This document shows, one piece after another, positions 1,246 through 53,942 of a stretch of DNA of 64,000 bases. Location of the stretch: IMG/VR virus record IMGVR_UViG_3300030118_001869, positions 1 to 64,000 of that record; one strand, 5' to 3'. Below the pieces are notes generated by a model, which saw only the letters and a program-made list of their open reading frames with translations, was not told the DNA's origin and did no database searches. This DNA is from a virus. Each line of letters opens with the position of its first letter. Position 1 is the first letter of the stretch. A program made the position numbers and the translations under genes.

Positions 1246-4158
1246 ATGGCTATAAGATTTGATCAAATACAATTATCTGATGATGGAAATCATTTACGTC
1301 CTACCATAGACGGTGATAACGGATATCTAACTATTAGAACTACTGGTGGTAAATTACAAATTGGACCAGGCAATAGTACCTTTTCACATTTCTATACGGA
1401 TAGAGGTTCTTATTATTTTAATACTGCAACTGTTAATTTTGATGGTAATATACAAGGATATGGTGGTGATGAAACCATATCAAATTTTTATTCAATAACA
1501 ACAGGCATATTTTACGATAAAGATAATACTAACTATTTTGTAGATCCTAATAGTGTAAGTTATATGAATAGGTTACTACTAGAAAATGCTAGAATTAGTT
1601 CAAATGAGGAATGGCCTGTTGGACACTATACAGGTGGTAAAGAAATATGGTCACTTGATCCAACTTGGACAGATGACCAAATTCAACAATACTTTGGTAG
1701 TTCTAACGTGGAGTGGTTAGAAGATTCAAATGCTCCTGGTGGTTGGGCTATAAAAATTACTGGAGCTGTAAATGTTGGTGGATTATATGACTCTGGTTTT
1801 CCATATATACCAATAGAAGAAGATGCTATATACTATATGGAATGTTATATCAGAGGTTCTGATTCTTCCACACAAGTTAGACACTATATGGGTAGTCAAG
1901 ATTTTACGGAATCATTTGGAGCACCATCATCAGGATCAGGTAACCCAGGAAGTTTTGGATATTGGGTAATGTCTAACACAGCAACAAATGGTAGTAGTTA
2001 TGCAAAAGTTCATGGTATAATTAGAGGGCATCATGATAACACAACAGGACGTTTTGAGACAGGTGCAAAATATTGGACACCTCAAGCACTATTTAATTAT
2101 TCACATCAAGCTGGAACTAGAGCTTGTGTAATATCTGGATGGAAAGTAATTAAAATATCATCACAAGAATATTTTGCAGATGGAACTTCTTCTGTTCCAA
2201 GTATATCATTTGCAGAAGATAAAGATGTTGGTCTGTATAGACCAGGTAGTAATCAATTAGGTTTTGTTGTTGGCGGTGGTCAAAGATTGAGTATGAGTAC
2301 TACAAATGCATCTTTTTCTGTTAATGTAATGCCGTCAGCAGAAAATTCTTATAATATTGGTAGTTCATCTTTAAGATGGGAAGACTTATATGTAGATGAT
2401 GGGTATATTAGAGATGTCTATGTAGATAACTATGTACGTCACAATGGAGATCCAGATACTTATTTTGGGTTTAATGGACAAGATCAATGGAAATTACACT
2501 TAGGTGGTGGTGATAGACTTATAGTAACTACTAGTCAATTTGAAAGTAACTTAGGCATAAAAGCACCTGTTTATTATGATAATAATACAGCTTATTATGC
2601 AGATTTAGGTAGTAGTTCTATAGCATTAAATATAAATGGTATTATAGATCAAAACTTTGAACAATCTAACTTAAACACGGCATGGACAACACCAGGTAAT
2701 AGTTTTGCTGAAGGATTTATAGTTGGTAGATACCAATCAACTGCAAGTAATGTACCTAGTAATAATGATAATGCTAACTGGTTTATGAATATATATTCAC
2801 ATTCTACAGGAGGTACAGCATCATACGGTATACAGTTAGCTGGATCAAATGCAAATAGTGGAGAAAATGCTTTATCATTAAGAAACGTAAGTAATGGTAG
2901 CTTTGGGTCTTGGAGAAAAGTATATCACGAAGGACACAAACCAACTTATGCAGAGCTTGGTAGTATGGCTTATAGCAACCTTACAGGTACACCTACAATA
3001 CCTTCAAGTTCTTCTTTTGTGGATCTGTCATCAAATCAAACTGTAGGTGGAAATAAACTATTTACAGGAAATACTACTTTCCGTAAAGGTGCAAGTGATC
3101 AAAACAATACTTCTGATACAGGATCTATACCTAGTACAACTGGTGCAGAAATGCTTAGACTTGAAGGTGGATATACAAATGGTCAATATACACATGAAAT
3201 TGCTAAAATAGATAGAGGAGGTAACTTACCTTTATATATAAGAGAGTCAAAAAGTAGTGCAAATAGTTTTACAAACCTAGTAAGATTTGGTAACCATAGT
3301 AACTCTCAAAAAGAGTTTCAGGTATTTGGTGATGCCCAAGCAACTAGTTACTATTCAACCGGATCTATAACAGGAACAATCTTTTATGATACAGATAACA
3401 GTGGTAGATATGTAGATCCAGGTAGTACTGGTGACTCAACTTATCTTAGAGGTTATATAAGAAGTACTAAATACAAAAGATTTGCAAACACGTTTGATTC
3501 TGAACTTCCATCAGCAATGCCTATGATTGGTGGTAGTGATTCTTCAATAGGTAGAGGATATGCTACAGTTGGATTTGACACAAACGGTAGATTAGCAATT
3601 TATGAAAGAGTATATACTATCAAAATATCTGGTAGCGGTTGGTTAAATAGAAATACTAACCCAATACCTATATTCCCACCAAGCGGTAACCATTTTGTGG
3701 TTGTAGAAGATTTTGTTGTCTATATAGATTATGAAACAAGAACAGGAATTAGCACTAGTGGTATTGCTAGACTTAATGATACAAATGCATATACAGTTGG
3801 CTTTTATGAAAATGCACAATCTGGAAATAGTCCTGGTAGTGGGCAATTTTACACACTAGGTGTGATGCCTCAGCAGTTTGTTAGAAATGCTACAACAGAT
3901 CAAGGTTACTATAGAGATGTACCGGTTCATCAATCAAAATTACTACCTAATAGAGGATTATTTTTAAGAACAGCTAGAGATTGTACTAGTACAAGTAACG
4001 CTCCAGGTGGTACACATTACGTACAAATTAAATACAGAATTATAAATACTTCTTCAGAAATGGAAAGTGATGTTGATTATAATGTTAATTATGCAGGTAC
4101 AACCAGTAATAGAACAGCTCCTCTACATGATGTAGATGGTAGCTTTATATCTTATTAA
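1246..4158 (+). CDS. Mosaic tail fibre / receptor-binding protein (970 aa)
   Basis: Gly/Ser/Asn/Thr-rich, with three copies of an FYDxDNxxYxxDPxS-type fibre repeat and a 'FADGTSSVPSISF..D.D.GLYR' fibre motif. Lies in the fibre cluster. Confidence 0.75.
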   Translation: MAIRFDQIQLSDDGNHLRPTIDGDNGYLTIRTTGGKLQIGPGNSTFSHFYTDRGSYYFNTATVNFDGNIQGYGGDETISNFYSITTGIFYDKDNTNYFVDPNSVSYMNRLLLENARISSNEEWPVGHYTGGKEIWSLDPTWTDDQIQQYFGSSNVEWLEDSNAPGGWAIKITGAVNVGGLYDSGFPYIPIEEDAIYYMECYIRGSDSSTQVRHYMGSQDFTESFGAPSSGSGNPGSFGYWVMSNTATNGSSYAKVHGIIRGHHDNTTGRFETGAKYWTPQALFNYSHQAGTRACVISGWKVIKISSQEYFADGTSSVPSISFAEDKDVGLYRPGSNQLGFVVGGGQRLSMSTTNASFSVNVMPSAENSYNIGSSSLRWEDLYVDDGYIRDVYVDNYVRHNGDPDTYFGFNGQDQWKLHLGGGDRLIVTTSQFESNLGIKAPVYYDNNTAYYADLGSSSIALNINGIIDQNFEQSNLNTAWTTPGNSFAEGFIVGRYQSTASNVPSNNDNANWFMNIYSHSTGGTASYGIQLAGSNANSGENALSLRNVSNGSFGSWRKVYHEGHKPTYAELGSMAYSNLTGTPTIPSSSSFVDLSSNQTVGGNKLFTGNTTFRKGASDQNNTSDTGSIPSTTGAEMLRLEGGYTNGQYTHEIAKIDRGGNLPLYIRESKSSANSFTNLVRFGNHSNSQKEFQVFGDAQATSYYSTGSITGTIFYDTDNSGRYVDPGSTGDSTYLRGYIRSTKYKRFANTFDSELPSAMPMIGGSDSSIGRGYATVGFDTNGRLAIYERVYTIKISGSGWLNRNTNPIPIFPPSGNHFVVVEDFVVYIDYETRTGISTSGIARLNDTNAYTVGFYENAQSGNSPGSGQFYTLGVMPQQFVRNATTDQGYYRDVPVHQSKLLPNRGLFLRTARDCTSTSNAPGGTHYVQIKYRIINTSSEMESDVDYNVNYAGTTSNRTAPLHDVDGSFISY

Positions 4159-4178
4159 GTTTATTTTATAATTTATTT

Positions 4179-4191
4179 TTTGTATATTTAA
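4179..4191 (+). promoter_or_regulatory. Putative phage promoter motif TTTGTATATT
   Basis: Intergenic copy of a motif recurring at 4990, 9248, 19518, 51905 (+) and 48874-48886 (-). Starts 45 nt before the ATG at 4224. Confidence 0.5.
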
Positions 4192-4223
4192 TTATATATT
4201 AGTTAAACTTAAAAAAAAATATT

Positions 4224-4583
4224 ATGGCTATATCATATGAATGGAAGATCACGGCTTTGAAAAAAGCACCTTCACTAGACGGATTGTCAGATGTGATTAC
4301 ACACGTTAATTTTGAATACAAAGGCTCAGATGATTCTACTGATCCAGCAACAGAAGGAGTATTTTATGGTGCATGTCCTGTAGGACCAGCAGACAAAGAT
4401 AATTTTGTAGCTCTTGCTGACCTTAAAGAATCTGATGTTATTGAGTGGGCAAAAGCAAACCACCCTGTAGAACACATGCAAGATGTAATTCAAAAAGCAA
4501 TAGAAGAAAAATTGACACCTAAAAATGTTGAAGTAGAGGCTCTGCCTTGGGTAGAGGAAGAAGAAGAGTCCTCAGAAGAATAA
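4224..4583 (+). CDS. Fibre-associated small protein (possible fibre assembly chaperone)
   Basis: MAISYEWKITALKK...LSDVI.HV ... LPW pattern of small proteins commonly found after aquatic phage fibre genes. Acidic tail. Confidence 0.55.
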   Translation: MAISYEWKITALKKAPSLDGLSDVITHVNFEYKGSDDSTDPATEGVFYGACPVGPADKDNFVALADLKESDVIEWAKANHPVEHMQDVIQKAIEEKLTPKNVEVEALPWVEEEEESSEE

Positions 4584-4615
4584 TTTGTGAAATAAAAAAA
4601 TATCTAGTATATTTG
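4584..4615 (+). promoter_or_regulatory. Bacteroidota housekeeping-sigma type promoter (-33 TTTG / -7 TAnnTTTG)
   Basis: TTTG at 4584-4587, a 20-nt spacer, then TATATTTG at 4608-4615. Matches the established Bacteroidota consensus and lies about 20 nt before the ATG at 4635. Confidence 0.55.
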
Positions 4616-4634
4616 AAAAATTAAATTTAATATT

Positions 4635-4928
4635 ATGGCAGAAGAAAAACCAATTGTAGAAACTGTACCTGTAACTGAAGAAACTAAAAAAGTATCTGAG
4701 GCAGAATTAAAAGAGATTCAGACTTTGAATCAAACAATGCAACAGATAACTATGGCTATAGGACAAACTTTTATATCAAGCTATAGAATGCTCAAAGACT
4801 TTGAGGGTGAGCAAACCAAACTAAATGATCTATCTAAGAAATTAGAAGACATCTATGGTAAGGTTAACATCAATATCAATGATGGTACTGTTACCCCTAT
4901 AAAAGAAGAAGAGCAACCTAAAGATTAA
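4635..4928 (+). CDS. Small coiled-coil hypothetical protein
   Basis: 97 aa heptad-like helix followed by YGKVNININDGTV. Function not recognised. Confidence 0.6.
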   Translation: MAEEKPIVETVPVTEETKKVSEAELKEIQTLNQTMQQITMAIGQTFISSYRMLKDFEGEQTKLNDLSKKLEDIYGKVNININDGTVTPIKEEEQPKD

Positions 4929-4989
4929 GTATACATAGATATTTTAAAAAACTATAATAAATCAAATTGCTTGTTTGATTTAGCAAAGT

Positions 4990-5002
4990 TTTGTATATTA
5001 TA
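4990..5002 (+). promoter_or_regulatory. Putative phage promoter motif TTTGTATATTATA
   Basis: Exact 13-mer also at 19518-19530 (+) and 48874-48886 (-). Upstream of the ATG at 5043. Confidence 0.55.
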
Positions 5003-5042
5003 CATATACATGTGATATAGTATACTGAAAAAAAAGATATCT

Positions 5043-7283
5043 ATGATTCCAACTAGTTCAAGCTCAGATTCAAACGGATGTAATAATATATCCTCTAACT
5101 GCGTTATTTGGCAAGGTCCAGACATTTCTTGTATTAACTTATGTAATGGTGATACAGTAAGTGACGTAGTAGCAGCATTAGCAGAAAAATTATGTGAACT
5201 TACTGCAGGTATAAGCAATGAGCCTGATCTTACAGGATTTGATTTAAAATGTGCTTTACCTTCAGGAGCAACTCCAACTACATTAGTAGAAAACTTACAA
5301 GCTATTATAACATATATATGTAGTCTACCTACAGATACAGGTACTCCATATACAGAACCTAATATAAATTTATGTGACGCATTACAGTATTCAGATGCTA
5401 ATGGTAATGTAGTAACATCACTACCATTAAGTCAATATGCAGAATTAGTTGGTGGCAAAGTATGTAATATAATTGCTACTATTACTACTATTCAAACTCA
5501 ATTATCATCTATAGATAGTAGAGTAACAGTACTAGAAAGCTTTTTTCCATTACCAACAGCTACTGAAGTACAGATTATACCTAAGTGTGTAACATCTACA
5601 GTTGGTCAACTAACTGATTTATCTATTGTTGTAGCAGCACTAGAAACTGCTTTTTGTGATTTACAAACGGCAACAGGTACTCCTACTATCATAGGTAATG
5701 CTGTTTCACAACAGGCTATTACAAATAATAATAATTTACTTAGTCAACCATCTCAAACCTATTCTGCACAAACAGGGTGGAAACCATCACCTGTTAATAT
5801 GGCTAACTCTTTACAAAATGCATGGATAGTAATTAAAGATCTTTATGATGCTGTAGCAACAATACAAACAAATTGTTGTCCTGGGGCTTGTGAAGATTTG
5901 AATTTCCAATTTTCTATTACACAACAGCTAGGACCAAACGGTATAGCTACTGCTTTAGTTCTTGATTTTTCAGGATCTACAATACCAGCAGGATTTGCAG
6001 ATACAGGAGGTAGTACAGTAATAACAGTTAATGATCAAGATTCAACAACAAACCCAGTAACAACAAGCTCCAACATAACTAGTGATATACAAAATGGTGC
6101 TAATGTAACTATTAATGTGACAAGTTTAAGTGCAGCACAGACTCTAACAGTTAGTATTCCTTCATCCTTTACTAATGCTACTAGTGGTGCAGTTTGTGAG
6201 CAAGTTGTAACACAAACAAGTAAAGGCAGTTTGCCTTGTCCATCAGATACTGCAGCAAGTAGTATTACATCATCAGGCTTTACTGTATCATTTACTAATG
6301 GATTAGGTTCAAGTGCAAGCTATCAAATTAAATTATATGAGATAGTAGGTGGTGTAACTCAGACGGCTGTAGCAGCTGACTCAGGTAACATAACTAGTCC
6401 AGGATCAACTGTTTCACATGCTTTTACAGGACTTACTGCAAATCAAAATTATGCTATTAGAGTATTTGTAACATTCCAAGGTGAAACAAAAGAATGTACT
6501 GATGTAGTTGGAAAAACAGAAGATGCAGCTCCACCGTGTAATGAAGGTATAGATATTGCATTCTTATTTGACTATACAAGTAGTATGCAGAGTTTTATCA
6601 GTACAGCTCAAACTAGTGTAGCAGGTATTATTAGTGATATAAAAACAGCATCAGGACATCCTACATATACATATAGATTGGCTTTAGCAACATTTGATGA
6701 ATATGTAGGTACAGGAACTGGTAATACTGGTCAAGCTTCAAATTATTCTACTAACTCAGAATATACAGGCTTACCTGCTGCACAAAAAGAAATTAATGTT
6801 AATACTGTAGCTAACAGAACGCAATATTATACATGTTGGGAAGATTTTGCTGATAATAATGAAACAGAATTTACTACTCAATTAAACAAATTAGCAAGCA
6901 GTTCTGGAGTACCAATTGGTAGCGGAGCAAGTTTTCCAGAACCTGGTGGAGAACTATTAAGTAGAGTTATTAATACTGGTTTTTGTGGAAACTTTAGACC
7001 TAGTGTAGCTAAAATTATGGTTATTATAACAGATGATAAACCAGGAGGAGATGATGATACTGCTAATGTTACTGATATTAACTTCTTCAATCAACTATCT
7101 CAACAATGTCAAAATGCAGGTATTAAAGTAATTGTATTAGGTTCTGGTGTAGATAAAAGTATTTCTAATGGTGGAGTTAATGTATTCCCATACAGAGATC
7201 TAGCTACACAAACAGGTGGTGCATACAACAATACATTTAATGCAGCTAATATAACAGCTGCTATAACTAACGCATGTGGATAA
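5043..7283 (+). CDS. Cys-rich putative virion appendage protein with FN3-like and C-terminal vWA domains (746 aa)
   Basis: Cys-rich helical N-terminus; FN3-like segment (SSITSSGFTVSF...FTGLTANQNYAIRV); vWA with IDIAFLFDYTSS (MIDAS-like DxTxS) and KIMVIITDD. Confidence 0.7.
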   Translation: MIPTSSSSDSNGCNNISSNCVIWQGPDISCINLCNGDTVSDVVAALAEKLCELTAGISNEPDLTGFDLKCALPSGATPTTLVENLQAIITYICSLPTDTGTPYTEPNINLCDALQYSDANGNVVTSLPLSQYAELVGGKVCNIIATITTIQTQLSSIDSRVTVLESFFPLPTATEVQIIPKCVTSTVGQLTDLSIVVAALETAFCDLQTATGTPTIIGNAVSQQAITNNNNLLSQPSQTYSAQTGWKPSPVNMANSLQNAWIVIKDLYDAVATIQTNCCPGACEDLNFQFSITQQLGPNGIATALVLDFSGSTIPAGFADTGGSTVITVNDQDSTTNPVTTSSNITSDIQNGANVTINVTSLSAAQTLTVSIPSSFTNATSGAVCEQVVTQTSKGSLPCPSDTAASSITSSGFTVSFTNGLGSSASYQIKLYEIVGGVTQTAVAADSGNITSPGSTVSHAFTGLTANQNYAIRVFVTFQGETKECTDVVGKTEDAAPPCNEGIDIAFLFDYTSSMQSFISTAQTSVAGIISDIKTASGHPTYTYRLALATFDEYVGTGTGNTGQASNYSTNSEYTGLPAAQKEINVNTVANRTQYYTCWEDFADNNETEFTTQLNKLASSSGVPIGSGASFPEPGGELLSRVINTGFCGNFRPSVAKIMVIITDDKPGGDDDTANVTDINFFNQLSQQCQNAGIKVIVLGSGVDKSISNGGVNVFPYRDLATQTGGAYNNTFNAANITAAITNACG

Positions 7284-46228: not shown

Positions 46229-46390
46229 ATGAAAGCTATTTTAGAACTGATATTAATTGCAGTGTTATTCCTTATAGGAACTGTAATTATAAGTATACTC
46301 AGTTTACTATATAGTCTAAAGAATACAGTTAAAAGATTGATTAGTTTATTAAGTAACCGTAAGGGGTTGACTCTACATCTGTACCTATAA
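46229..46390 (+). CDS. Possible small membrane peptide (53 aa, below the ORF-track cutoff)
   Basis: ATG directly after the stop at 46228, encoding a hydrophobic helix (MKAILELILIAVLFLIGTVIISILSLLYSLK...). Overlaps the 3' end of the opposing gene. Confidence 0.3.
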   Translation: MKAILELILIAVLFLIGTVIISILSLLYSLKNTVKRLISLLSNRKGLTLHLYL

Positions 46391-46886
46391 GCATATTTTC
46401 TATTTTGAATTCTGCTACTTGTACTGCATCTATATATGGGTTATAGAACTCACCACTACCTTCTAGACTTATTCTATCTCCTACAACTGACTGTACATCA
46501 ACATATGCCCAGTTAACATAGTCATTTTCTCCTATGATTTCTAGACCTGCTAGTTTATCATCAGTTCCTAGATGATCATAGATTCCAGTATCTAGTAAGT
46601 CATCATCCATGTCTCCTTCTAAGTCATAGGTAAATAAAGCAAAGTGTTGTCTATCTAATCTGGGTTGTCCATCATCTACTTGTAGATAAAGTACAAAGAT
46701 TTTTCTTCTGAAGCCGTCTACATCTTTGACTGCTCCATATGTATTGATAACAGAGTATCTTTCATATGGGTCAAATGCAACGCCATCTAATGATATTTCA
46801 AAAACAACTTCTGGTTCAGATATGACTTCTTCCTTTTCACATCCTAGTAATAGAAGTAAAGTAAGTAATAATAATAATTTTTTCAT
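46341..46886 (-). CDS. Lipoprotein, probably surface-exposed
   Basis: Likely start MKKLLLLLTLLLLLGC (SPII lipobox) followed by EKEE, matching the Bacteroidota lipoprotein export signal C-x-K-(D/E)2. The mature part is acidic and beta-rich. Confidence 0.75.
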   Translation of the reverse strand: MKKLLLLLTLLLLLGCEKEEVISEPEVVFEISLDGVAFDPYERYSVINTYGAVKDVDGFRRKIFVLYLQVDDGQPRLDRQHFALFTYDLEGDMDDDLLDTGIYDHLGTDDKLAGLEIIGENDYVNWAYVDVQSVVGDRISLEGSGEFYNPYIDAVQVAEFKIENMLIGTDVESTPYGYLIN

Positions 46887-46896
46887 GATTGTAAAT

Positions 46897-47295
46897 TTAA
46901 AACTGTGATGCTTGATTTGCTTGTTCAATTGCTTCCTCTATTTCTTGCAATGTAACTGGACATTCTAAGTCCAATCCTGCTTTCCACACTTCTTCTTTGA
47001 AACCTTCTTTAAATAAGATTATTGTTGGTGCCATACGCACTTTGTACTTCTTTTTTGCTTGGGGTGCTTTACCTATATCAACACGCACATAAGGGATATC
47101 TATTTTACTCCAGTCAGCAAATGCATTGGCCTCATTGAACTTAGCCCAAAACTCTACTATTACTAAAGGCTCATCCTCACCATAGGCACTCTTACCACTG
47201 ATAACATCTTCTATATTTGAGTCATCTGCCCATTGCTGTGAAAAACTTAATAAGGGCAGAAGTAATAGTATTACTATTATGAATTTTTTTAACAT
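46897..47295 (-). CDS. Secreted thioredoxin-fold protein lacking CxxC
   Basis: Signal peptide MLKKFIIVILLLLPLLSFSQ. Trx pattern LVIVEFWAKFN (CxxC replaced), VRVDI...KKYKVRMAPTIILFKEG. Confidence 0.75.
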   Translation of the reverse strand: MLKKFIIVILLLLPLLSFSQQWADDSNIEDVISGKSAYGEDEPLVIVEFWAKFNEANAFADWSKIDIPYVRVDIGKAPQAKKKYKVRMAPTIILFKEGFKEEVWKAGLDLECPVTLQEIEEAIEQANQASQF

Positions 47296-47297
47296 TA

Positions 47298-47582
47298 CTA
47301 TCTTCTTTGTTGTAATTCATACAATCTTTCATCAATTTTATCAAGTTGCTCTTTCATTGATTCTACATCTTCTTGTGTATCTAAAATTGTTTGACGAATT
47401 AATTCATCTTTAAGATCATACTCTATTCTGTCTATAACAGGAGCAGGTAATTCTTTTGCCTCAGCAATGTCTGCTTGGAGTGCAAACCACATACCTACTA
47501 ATGCTGCTATACCTGTACCAATCATTCCTAATGTTTTTAAATCTAAAGTTACTTTAGTATCTTCACCTATTTGCTTTGCCAT
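47298..47582 (-). CDS. Single-pass membrane protein with C-terminal coiled coil
   Basis: TM segment LGMIGTGIAALVGMWFAL followed by heptad repeats (TQEDVESMKEQLDKIDERLYEL). Confidence 0.7.
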   Translation of the reverse strand: MAKQIGEDTKVTLDLKTLGMIGTGIAALVGMWFALQADIAEAKELPAPVIDRIEYDLKDELIRQTILDTQEDVESMKEQLDKIDERLYELQQRR

Positions 47583-47591
47583 TTTATTTTA

Positions 47592-48830
47592 TTATTTAAA
47601 TGAAAAGTTCAGACCTACACTGCTCTGAAATAATTCACTGTCCCAAAATTTTGCGTACTCTCCTTCAATAAATATTCCCAATGTTTTGCTCAGCCTCCAG
47701 CCAAAGTTAACTCCTGCTGAATAATCATCCCATTGCTCTGGCTCAGCATCTTGTCTTAATCCTCCTTTACCCCAGTTATTTCTATTTAGATAACTAAAGT
47801 TTTCATCTCCTGCAATGTACTTGTGATAAGGAAGAATCCAGTTAGCATATGCATGTAACCAGAAGTTAGGCTTATAGTGATAAAAATCAAATCCTACAAT
47901 TGGTGCTACTTCTCCAAATGGGTCTATTAGATCCCACTGCTCATTATTAAATCTGTTAATTAAATCTCTGAATACTGTATTACGGAAGTCTAAGTCTGAG
48001 TATGCTACAATTCTATCTTCTGAATCTCTCCATATCCAGTCAAATGTTGTATCACCTGTTTGCTCATCAGTGTAAGTTGTAGCATGGTCCGTATATCCAT
48101 ACTCATAACCTAAGCTATACCATGGATTAGCAGGATACTCTATAACTTCTCCTGTCTGAGGATTTGTCCATGTCTCAGTTTCATTTAACCATATTTCAAT
48201 TGGATTGTATCCATAAGCACGTTCATGCGTACGGTAGATTGCACCGGCTGATATACTAAACTTTTTACCAATTGGTAGTCTAGCTCTGACCTCAGCTGAC
48301 TGATAGTCTAAGTTAATCTTTCCTACAGCTCTTGACTCAGCTTTTATAATGTGATATTTTCCTGTCCACTTAACAAAGAATCTGTGATTATCAAATACTT
48401 CTCCCCTGTTTCTTTCTTTACCTACATCAAACTGATATTCTAATCCTGTTAATGCTGAGCTAGGTGCAGTAAATGCTAACTGCTGCTCTGTACCATCATA
48501 CCAGTTTCTTGGCTTTCTTTCATAATTAAAACGTGCAAGCTTTCTAATACCAAAGCTCCATCTGTAGTCAAATTCAAAGTATTCAGTTACGTCTATTACA
48601 CGTGGAATACCGTAGAGATCACCATCTGCAGGTCTCTCTACAAAGAAGTCTTGTCTGCTTGATTCATAAGAACTACGTGCATCACCGGCTGCATACACAG
48701 TACCGTACTGTAGAAAGTCTTTGTATAAGGCTTTGAAGAATTTACCTTTTTCCTTTTCTTCTTGACCATGAGAAAGGTTTGGTAAGCACAATAAGAGCAT
48801 AAAAACCAACAGACCTAAATATTTTTTCAT
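47592..48830 (-). CDS. Putative outer-membrane beta-barrel protein (412 aa)
   Basis: Sec signal peptide; Tyr/Trp/Phe-rich amphipathic strands (FSISAGAIYR, PIVGFDFYHY, YSAGVNFGWRL, LGIFIEGEY); C-terminal beta-signal-like SSVGLNFSFK. Confidence 0.7.
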   Translation of the reverse strand: MKKYLGLLVFMLLLCLPNLSHGQEEKEKGKFFKALYKDFLQYGTVYAAGDARSSYESSRQDFFVERPADGDLYGIPRVIDVTEYFEFDYRWSFGIRKLARFNYERKPRNWYDGTEQQLAFTAPSSALTGLEYQFDVGKERNRGEVFDNHRFFVKWTGKYHIIKAESRAVGKINLDYQSAEVRARLPIGKKFSISAGAIYRTHERAYGYNPIEIWLNETETWTNPQTGEVIEYPANPWYSLGYEYGYTDHATTYTDEQTGDTTFDWIWRDSEDRIVAYSDLDFRNTVFRDLINRFNNEQWDLIDPFGEVAPIVGFDFYHYKPNFWLHAYANWILPYHKYIAGDENFSYLNRNNWGKGGLRQDAEPEQWDDYSAGVNFGWRLSKTLGIFIEGEYAKFWDSELFQSSVGLNFSFK

Positions 48831-48873
48831 ATTTAAAGTTTAATATTAATCTATGTTTGTGTTGGTTATATAA

Positions 48874-48886
48874 TATAATATACAAA
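48874..48886 (-). promoter_or_regulatory. Putative phage promoter motif TTTGTATATTATA (minus strand)
   Basis: Exact reverse-complement copy, oriented towards the beta-barrel gene. Confidence 0.55.
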
Positions 48887-53274: not shown

Positions 53275-53475
53275 ATGCCAGCAAAGAAAAAGAAAAAGAG
53301 TACAGTAAACGCATCAGGTAATTACACAAAGCCAACTATGCGTAAAAGATTGTTTAACCAAATCAAAGCCGGTAGCAAAGGTGGTAGACCAGGACAGTGG
53401 TCAGCACGTAAAGCTCAAATGCTAGCTAAAAGATATAAAGCTGCAGGTGGAGGTTATAGAGGAAAAAAGAAATAA
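53275..53475 (+). CDS. Small basic protein
   Basis: NYTKPTMRKRLF..IKAGSKGG.PGQWSARKAQ.LA..YKAAGGGY, a motif I recognise from aquatic phages. Function unknown. Confidence 0.7.
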   Translation: MPAKKKKKSTVNASGNYTKPTMRKRLFNQIKAGSKGGRPGQWSARKAQMLAKRYKAAGGGYRGKKK

Positions 53476-53942
53476 TGTCAAAACCTAAGAAAAAATTTAA
53501 GGATACTAAAGTAGGCCAGTTTCTTACAGATAAAGTACCAGGTATACTTGGTGTAGTAGGAGATGTTTTGCCTGACGCAGGTGTATTAGGTGTAGTAAAA
53601 GGATTAATTGAAAAAGAAGATCCTGTAGTACTACCACCAGAGGATAAAGAGAAAGCAATGAAGCTGCTTGAACTTGATATGATAGAGATGCAAGAAATTA
53701 GTAAAAGATGGGATAGTGATATGAAGTCAGATTCCTGGCTCAGTAAGAATACTAGACCTATGAGTCTAATTTTTTTGACATTATCTATGGTTTTATTAAT
53801 TTTACTAGATAGCTTTGAGTGGAGCTTCAATGTATCAACCGGTTGGGTAGATCTTTTGCAGACACTTTTAGTTACAGTCTATGTAGCTTATTTTGGTTCA
53901 AGAGGGGCAGAGAAGTTTCAATCAATAACTAAAAATAAATAA
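53475..53942 (+). CDS. Holin (GTA-type 3TM holin-like)
   Basis: RWDSDMKSDSWLSKNTRP followed by two TM segments and YFGSRGAEK. Confidence 0.75.
   Translation: MSKPKKKFKDTKVGQFLTDKVPGILGVVGDVLPDAGVLGVVKGLIEKEDPVVLPPEDKEKAMKLLELDMIEMQEISKRWDSDMKSDSWLSKNTRPMSLIFLTLSMVLLILLDSFEWSFNVSTGWVDLLQTLLVTVYVAYFGSRGAEKFQSITKNK

Follow-up and report, generated by a model that had tools for sequence, protein, structure and literature searches.

Two-component spanins, such as Rz/Rz1 of lambda and PseT.3/PseT.2 of T4, pair an N-terminally anchored inner-membrane protein with a periplasmic coiled coil (the i-spanin) with an outer-membrane (OM) lipoprotein of 20–70 aa (the o-spanin), and approximately 96% of them carry periplasmic cysteines which form intermolecular disulfides (PMC6139136). 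Approximately 13–15% of the phages of Gram-negative hosts have no spanins, some that infect Bacteroides or a marine flavobacterium among them (PMC6139136). The survey by Kongari et al. (2018, PMC6139136) listed Bacteroides and Croceibacter phages as spanin-less and suggested that an outer-membrane protein (OMP) could serve as o-spanin. How phages without recognisable spanins breach the OM is an open question, on which the locus described here bears. This locus lies in the first 64 kb (hereafter the window) of the 114,106-bp IMG/VR virus record IMGVR_UViG_3300030118_001869, which has a completeness rating of 99% and looks like the genome of an uncultured marine phage of crAss-like type. It consists of three adjacent genes, here called the trio, which encode a predicted OM beta-barrel, a membrane-anchored coiled-coil protein (TMcc) and an exported protein of thioredoxin fold (TRX), followed by a fourth gene for a predicted surface lipoprotein.

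Phage-encoded OM barrels are the other described systems to which the locus can be compared. An earlier annotation of this DNA, made from its letters only (the sequence-only reading), took such barrels to be uncommon, a premise that is dated, as 1,603 of them have been reported in huge phages (2026 preprint, 10.64898/2026.10.24.761521). The same preprint cites the blocking of LamB by lambda Lom. Lom is an 8-strand Ail/Lom barrel which acts alone, whereas the barrel described here has a predicted 14 strands, belongs to no named family and is always inherited with inner-membrane and periplasmic partners. With Lom, Bor and the huge-phage OMPs it shares that it is a phage-encoded barrel with a signal peptide, that it is accessory and probably partly surface-exposed, and that it can be found near lysis genes, as is lambda bor. 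We found no description in the literature searched of this trio, of a barrel in a lysis cassette or of an OMP acting as o-spanin.

The reading we prefer, which we hold tentatively and with somewhat less than even confidence, is that the trio is a lysis-associated trans-envelope module that carries out, or aids, the OM step in a manner analogous to spanins.

The trio in related phages

The four genes follow nrdB-nrdA, share its strand and are separated, in the order barrel, TMcc, TRX and lipoprotein, by 9, 2 and 10 nt, the barrel and TMcc genes sharing a reading frame (Table 1). The sequence-only reading had described four tightly packed minus-strand genes, each with an envelope-targeting signal; the listing of open reading frames (ORFs) confirmed the packing, and all four signals are present in the protein sequences. 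These genes are not chance ORFs, because they are conserved across thousands of metagenomic protein clusters, with at least 8000 clusters for TMcc and at least 2395 at 90% identity for the barrel (242 representatives at 50%, all unnamed).

We collected 101 related loci from IMG/VR and from metagenome-assembled genome (MAG) contigs. The barrel was called in 97 of them, TMcc in 88 and TRX in 89, most of the misses being truncated contigs or antisense ORF calls. The gene order was either barrel-TMcc-TRX or TMcc-TRX-barrel, in many gene contexts and with median gaps within the trio of 3 and -1 nt. Linkage was kept even in loci L019–L023, where barrel identity is only 26–31%; TMcc is highly conserved, with 45–53% identity even there. 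Of the four-gene module proposed in the sequence-only reading, the barrel, TMcc and TRX genes were therefore found to be conserved as a unit, whereas the lipoprotein gene was present in only 13 of the 101 loci. The expected co-occurrence in other genomes was seen in other phages, and the genes did not turn out to be a fragment of a known host operon, since their relatives are all encoded on contigs from phages or on MAG contigs that are phage-like. A host-operon origin was also rejected by a scan of 185,579 species genomes, which returned only 12 loci, all of them MAG contigs with phage neighbours (the scan used a single peptide pattern and could miss distant chromosomal relatives). The ESM-Atlas neighbours of the barrel were 100% viral. 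Searches of the module, the barrel and TMcc by blastn and tblastn against 50,697 GenBank phage records gave no match, and that set contains no cultured carrier.

After dereplication at 90% barrel identity, 69 loci remained, and 42 of them have a recognised endolysin gene no more than three genes from the trio, often at a distance of 0–24 nt; among the 31 loci in which three or more genes flank the trio on each side, the count is 24. Approximately 5% would be expected from one endolysin in about 120 genes, a comparison in which the related loci are not independent. The endolysins in this slot are of four kinds (Table 1), and the holin after them is either phrog_3427/GTA_holin_3TM or Phage_holin_4_1. 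A common gene string runs from a holin-like gene with two transmembrane (TM) segments, g55255, through barrel, TMcc, TRX and amidase to holin, with median gaps of 2, 3, -1, 24 and 3 nt, and this spacing looks like that of a single operon; where the barrel gene precedes the endolysin, the median gap is -4 nt. Homologues of the phrog_3427 holin, the kind found in this phage, stand directly after barrel and endolysin in several relatives, and holin cluster c11 adjoins the trio in L008, L009, L011, L012, L039, L067, L076, L077 and L095. The g55255 gene is directly upstream of the barrel gene in 19 loci; its product, for which family searches gave no match, is putatively holin-like by topology. In the genome studied here g55255 lies 6.4 kb from the trio, just before a tail-fibre-like gene. 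Of the roles listed in the sequence-only reading, OM disruption or another part in lysis gained positive evidence from the endolysin and holin adjacency in relatives, whereas exclusion or receptor remodelling and nutrient uptake gained none.

In order to avoid circularity, we also gathered relatives through their DNA polymerase, a marker independent of the trio, and searched 11 near-complete genomes. The trio was complete in five of these and wholly absent from six. In a core tree, computed from 19,341 alignment columns of 31 single-copy core proteins, G007 and G008, which lack the trio, were sisters of G005 and G010, which have it (support 1.0 for both), and the remaining four trio-less genomes formed a separate clade. 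This placement implies at least three gain or loss events, each involving all three genes. The trio is an accessory module in this clade and not part of the core, and it appears to be a mobile three-gene module with one protein per envelope layer. In this phage and its closest relatives it is flanked by nrdA and the last giant cargo gene and can point either way, and this slot, which is empty in three trio-less relatives, is a variable hot spot. In the trio-less G007 the slot is taken up by a phage-encoded two-component system, with a PAS-domain histidine kinase and a response regulator, and by genes for three further products that are membrane or secreted proteins.

A pangenome of 12 complete genomes, six with the trio and six without, contained four clusters enriched in trio-less genomes, of which cl66 and cl80 come closest to a fully opposite pattern. 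The cl66 protein (104 aa, TM segment at the N-terminus, long coiled coil) is encoded by all six trio-less genomes and by one of the six trio genomes (G005), and the multi-TM cl80 protein (130 aa) by five of the six trio-less genomes and no trio genome. The best matches of the cl66 protein were 'hol-like' PHROGs (E 1.6e-9); those to Rz-like spanin PHROGs were weak. This distribution agrees with the two sets of genes being alternatives for a single task, in the envelope or in lysis, the task itself not being specified by the pattern. Homology between TMcc and cl66 was rejected (BLASTP E 1.1), and no lipoprotein ORF was found beside cl66 in the trio-less relatives.

The 'hol-like' matches of this replacement gene, its multi-TM neighbour and the holins and holin-like genes adjoining the trio would also agree with a control of lysis timing, in which the trio would relay an envelope signal to the holin, either as an antiholin or lysis-inhibition-like device or as a holin partner. 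The N-terminus of TMcc, conserved and predicted to be cytoplasmic, would be expected if the protein contacted an inner-membrane partner. Nevertheless, an OM barrel occurs in no known antiholin system and the sequences give no indication of a sensor, and we consider this explanation quite unlikely.

Predicted products of the trio

The 412-aa barrel protein starts with a hydrophobic signal (N-terminus MKKYLGLLVFMLLLCLPNLSHGQ), contains 18.7% aromatic residues and ends in G-L-N-F-S-F-K, which fits the beta-signal G-x-x-aromatic-x-aromatic and in which, in the family alignment, G406 is invariant and N408 nearly so. An AlphaFold2 (AF2) model built from 30 sequences was all-beta, with a predicted local distance difference test (pLDDT) score of 75.5, and its leading matches by Foldseek and VIA-align were all OM barrels (VIA-align Z 11.3 for CymA, 10.3 for OmpG, 10.0 for Tsx and 9.8 for Omp33), with the barrels of TamA, CdiB and BamA also matched. 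The OM barrel called in the sequence-only reading was thus recovered by AF2, Foldseek and VIA-align alike, rather than a soluble fold, and signal peptide, modelled fold and beta-signal together point to a predicted barrel assembled by the BAM complex. Its sequence matched nothing in Pfam, NCBIfam or PHROG at E ≤ 1, and the barrel alignment, used as a profile against PDB sequences, found nothing either. There was no profile match to any of the named OMP families (OmpA, Ail/Lom, porins, PorP/SprF, FadL, autotransporter), and the structural matches favour no single family.

Counting DSSP strands back from the C-terminus, without coordinates, suggests 14 strands and a periplasmic location of both termini, with an N-terminal helix also placed in the periplasm. 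The most strongly conserved motif of the family, RKLARFxYE...YDGTE (residues 94–115), belongs to a basic loop (approximately residues 94–128) which in the model would lie in the periplasm and be unusually long. Residues 203–304 form a folded insert (approximately 100 aa), which is probably extracellular. Residues 200–306 folded alone gave a pLDDT of 88.5, and the insert has no convincing structural neighbour (best VIA-align Z 4.1, best Foldseek E 0.16) and no assignable enzyme or binding fold. The family alignment contains conserved His, Asp and Glu residues, and the only Cys of the barrel protein is in the signal peptide.

The substrate channels among the structural neighbours (CymA, OmpG and Tsx, Z 10–11) are compatible with an auxiliary uptake channel, in which the barrel would be a porin for, as an example, nucleosides used in phage DNA synthesis. 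This would explain the proximity to nrdAB, nrdA being near the trio in 54 of the 101 loci. However, likeness among barrels of 12–16 strands is generic, the orientation of the trio relative to nrdAB flips between lineages, and trio-less relatives keep nrdAB. Furthermore, a porin has no need of an inner-membrane coiled coil or of a dead thioredoxin, and the adjacency to endolysin and holin genes would be left unexplained, which makes a role in uptake very unlikely.

The barrel subunits of Bacteroidota BAM complexes were also among the fold matches (Z 7.8) and bear on another possibility, namely that the barrel is a PorP/SprF-type anchor holding cargo of the type IX secretion system on the cell surface. 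In three distant loci a large protein gene lies directly upstream of the barrel gene (L020, L023) or nearby (L019). L020 encodes, at 3015-5999, a 994-aa phage protein with a Por_Secre_tail C-terminal domain (CTD; 50 bits), homologues of which (c109) are near the trio in L019 and L023. Yet this concerns 3 of approximately 100 loci, a Por_Secre_tail search of the genome studied here returned no CTD protein, and the barrel had no match to PorP_SprF or any other Pfam family at E ≤ 1. Of the explanations weighed here, we consider an anchor of this kind the most improbable.

The 94-aa TMcc protein has a short N-terminus with the conserved motif LDxKT, predicted to be cytoplasmic, a single hydrophobic segment at approximately residues 17–35 (Kyte–Doolittle 1.72) and an acidic helical or coiled-coil tail of approximately 55 aa, in agreement with the single-TM coiled-coil protein described earlier. 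None of its 78 distinct homologues contains Cys. Its PHROG matches were weak and to families of unknown function, and the only families matched were weak ones of coiled-coil type. The TMcc gene always adjoins those of the barrel and TRX. With an N-terminal TM anchor and a predicted periplasmic coiled coil, its architecture appears i-spanin-like.

The 132-aa TRX protein carries a signal peptide and matched thioredoxins, both in Pfam (PF00085, 26.6 bits, the cut-off being 23.5) and as its best PDB sequence matches (E 1.4e-4). The sequence-only reading had called it a secreted, redox-dead thioredoxin with WAKFN in place of WCxxC. The lack of CxxC was confirmed, but the thioredoxin alignment puts FNEAN at the position of WCGPC, with WAK just before it, and both active-site cysteines are replaced. 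The motif EFWA(E/K)FNxxN(A/C/S)F was present in 77 of 77 distinct homologues, R..PT is also conserved, and the cis-Pro loop is kept. Compared with PF00085 thioredoxins, TRX shares the fold at sequence level and the conserved cis-proline loop. It differs in having Asn for both catalytic cysteines in all 77 homologues, in being exported through a signal peptide and in being unable to reduce the adjacent ribonucleotide reductase.

Comparison with spanins and possible role

A whole-genome lipobox scan yielded four lipoprotein candidates and no i-spanin/o-spanin pair. The predicted anchor and periplasmic coiled coil of TMcc correspond to what defines an i-spanin. No trio protein has the lipobox and mature length of approximately 20–70 aa of an o-spanin, the conserved OM partner being the 412-aa barrel. 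The lipoprotein departs from that definition as well, with its mature length of 165 aa, its surface-export signal and its presence in a minority of loci. The trio resembles two-component spanins in combining an N-terminally anchored inner-membrane protein, with its coiled coil in the periplasm, and an OM partner, in that its genes abut one another and, in most relatives, endolysin and holin genes, and in being dispensable in some related phages. It differs in that its OM partner would be a BAM-type 14-strand barrel of approximately 390 aa instead of a 20–70-aa lipoprotein, in having an obligatory third, periplasmic component, the dead thioredoxin, in its shorter coiled coil without periplasmic cysteines, and in showing no sequence similarity to spanin families. 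Because its OM partner is not a lipoprotein, and cysteines and sequence similarity are missing, the trio should not be classed as a two-component spanin, even though it may work like one.

In the mechanism we propose, TMcc would be anchored in the inner membrane with its acidic coiled coil in the periplasm, and the cysteine-free thioredoxin fold would serve as a periplasmic adaptor and not as a redox enzyme. The barrel would be inserted into the OM by the host BAM complex, with its basic periplasmic loop inside and its folded domain on the cell surface. Once holin and endolysin have acted, the trio would breach the OM, or help to do so, by joining both membranes as a spanin complex does, with the barrel in place of the small o-spanin lipoprotein; the 181-aa surface lipoprotein would be an optional accessory in this lineage. 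TMcc and TRX are acidic (pI 4.45 and 4.72) and the most conserved motif of the barrel is basic, which may suggest mutual contact, and the physical envelope complex of all four products imagined in the sequence-only reading may form.

With slightly greater reserve than for a role in the OM step as such, we suggest that the trio could represent a third architecture of phage OM disruption, a three-component spanin analogue in which a barrel replaces the o-spanin and a dead thioredoxin bridges to the inner-membrane coiled coil. If true, such an analogue would account for how many 'spanin-less' Bacteroidota phages finish lysis.

Several observations weigh against a part in lysis. TMcc matched no spanin PHROG or Pfam family at E ≤ 0.1, the periplasmic cysteines typical of spanins are missing from the trio, a periplasmic tail of approximately 55 aa is short for bridging the periplasm, and it is not obvious what membrane fusion would gain from the folded surface domain of the barrel. 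Related phages are not independent instances of gene adjacency, and in this genome the trio is apart from the lysis genes, the holin gene starting at 53475 and the amidase gene at genome position 86718, outside the window. The placement of the trio in the slot between nrdA and the cargo gene is typical of accessory or moron genes. Moreover, six complete trio-less relatives keep the same amidase, which indicates that lysis in this clade does not depend on the trio.

Some of these features agree with superinfection exclusion or receptor masking, in which the surface domain of the barrel, with or without the lipoprotein, would alter the cell surface against further adsorption or injection and the inner partners would aid assembly or signalling. 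Phage OM barrels and lipoproteins are known for exclusion, as exemplified by lambda Lom and LamB (10.64898/2026.10.24.761521). The extracellular domain of the barrel was modelled with confidence, the surface-export signal is conserved in the lipoprotein family, and the module is accessory, occurring in 5 of 11 complete relatives and here in a variable hot spot. However, exclusion would explain neither why the inner-membrane TMcc and the periplasmic TRX are constantly co-inherited with the barrel nor why, in most lineages, the trio is squeezed in with holin-like genes on one side and endolysins on the other, at gaps close to zero, and exclusion genes are usually expressed early and not from a late lysis operon. 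We regard exclusion as unlikely and prefer a spanin-analogous role in lysis.

The trio is abundant in ocean viromes (thousands of protein clusters), has clear limits, is inherited as a unit and occupies the spanin position of many lysis cassettes, which makes it a concrete, clonable candidate for the OM step. If the lysis role is wrong, it would still be a widespread three-layer envelope module of marine phages, with a thioredoxin fold turned to a non-redox use.

The lipoprotein and other genes of the genome

The start of the lipoprotein gene is likely the ATG at 46886, giving a product which begins MKKLLLLLTLLLLLGC; the alternative ORF, 46341-46928, encodes 195 aa from a TTG start. The lipobox LLGC is followed by C-E-K-E-E, and C-[ETSD]-K-[DE]-[DE] follows the lipobox in 11 of 11 distinct family members. 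The lipoprotein export signal (LES) of Bacteroidota is K-(D/E)2 near the lipobox Cys (Lauber et al. 2016, PMC5080379), and this motif argues for a predicted LES-type surface lipoprotein, as the sequence-only reading had it. Together with the type IX secretion CTD protein of the distant locus L020, the LES indicates a Bacteroidota host. The protein shares with described LES lipoproteins (PMC5080379) the lipobox, the motif C-x-K-(D/E)2 and a gene adjoining that of an OM barrel, as in Sus-like pairs, and it differs from them in being phage-encoded, in lacking similarity to SusD or to named lipoproteins and in being just an occasional companion of the barrel. Its family comprises 513 unnamed metagenomic clusters. 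Where present, its gene always adjoins the trio, and unrelated lipoproteins sometimes fill nearby slots in other loci; it is a lineage-specific optional accessory of the trio. Its 3' end is overlapped over 50 nt by a very hydrophobic 53-aa ORF directly after the stop of the 1896-aa gene; this ORF had no tblastn match in loci L002–L013 and is probably not a gene.

Table 1 Features of the locus, the genome and its relatives (window positions unless a locus or genome is named).
Feature	Size	Position	Strand	Remark
Barrel gene	412 aa	47592..48830	-	ORF listing
TMcc gene (TM coiled coil)	94 aa	47298..47582	-	ORF listing
TRX gene (thioredoxin fold)	132 aa	46897..47295	-	ORF listing
Lipoprotein gene	181 aa from ATG at 46886	46341..46886	-	ORF listing
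Holin of this phage		53475..53942	+	phrog_3427, E 4.8e-19
g55255, putatively holin-like	90 aa	55255..55527	+	two hydrophobic segments, basic C-tail
Slot endolysin, kind 1	296 aa			Amidase_2; homologue of this genome's 86718-87677 gene
Slot endolysin, kind 2	139 aa			Amidase_2
Slot endolysin, kind 3				Peptidase_M15_3/phrog_894
Slot endolysin, kind 4				phrog_33083-like protein
cl80 and cl66, adjacent		L196:16017-16707 (G004:96017-96707)		just beyond nrdB; equivalents in G006-G009, G011
Slot of trio-less G007		L186:1990-3701		two-component system
Hydrophobic ORF	53 aa	46229-46390	+	overlaps lipoprotein gene
Lipobox ORF	76 aa	59366-59596	-	lipobox FHFLGC
ORF overlapped by the 76-aa ORF	151 aa	59008-59463		
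Lipobox ORF	146 aa	genome 83441-83881	-	outside window
Lipobox ORF	51 aa	genome 83945-84100	-	outside window
Secreted protein, polybasic C-tail	124 aa	L103:498-872 (genome 86075-86449)		outside window

The crAss-like look of the source genome comes from its G+C content of approximately 33%, from three giant genes for virion or cargo proteins (2039, 4283 and 1896 aa) and from its DNA polymerase, which shares approximately 32% identity with the enzyme of Cellulophaga phage phi14:2. No tRNAs were found in it, and a promoter and terminator consensus scan gave a result no better than shuffled sequence.

Other lipobox ORFs of the genome (Table 1) include one of 146 aa in which C-S-K-D-D-D after the lipobox is of LES type too, one of 51 aa and one of 76 aa, which has a good lipobox and is o-spanin-sized, with no i-spanin partner nearby. 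The 76-aa ORF overlaps the annotated start of a 151-aa ORF, the true start of which is probably Met34. Outside the window, a 124-aa secreted protein with the polybasic C-tail KKSKRKKKRRPRSKG showed a weak match to the YfiM family (42.5 bits, below cut-off). Its homologues (cluster c14) adjoin the trio or the endolysin in 15 loci, and it could be a further envelope-active lysis accessory. The apparently gene-free region at 106–114 kb of the genome proved to be an open frame of approximately 2,580 codons running past the end of the record.

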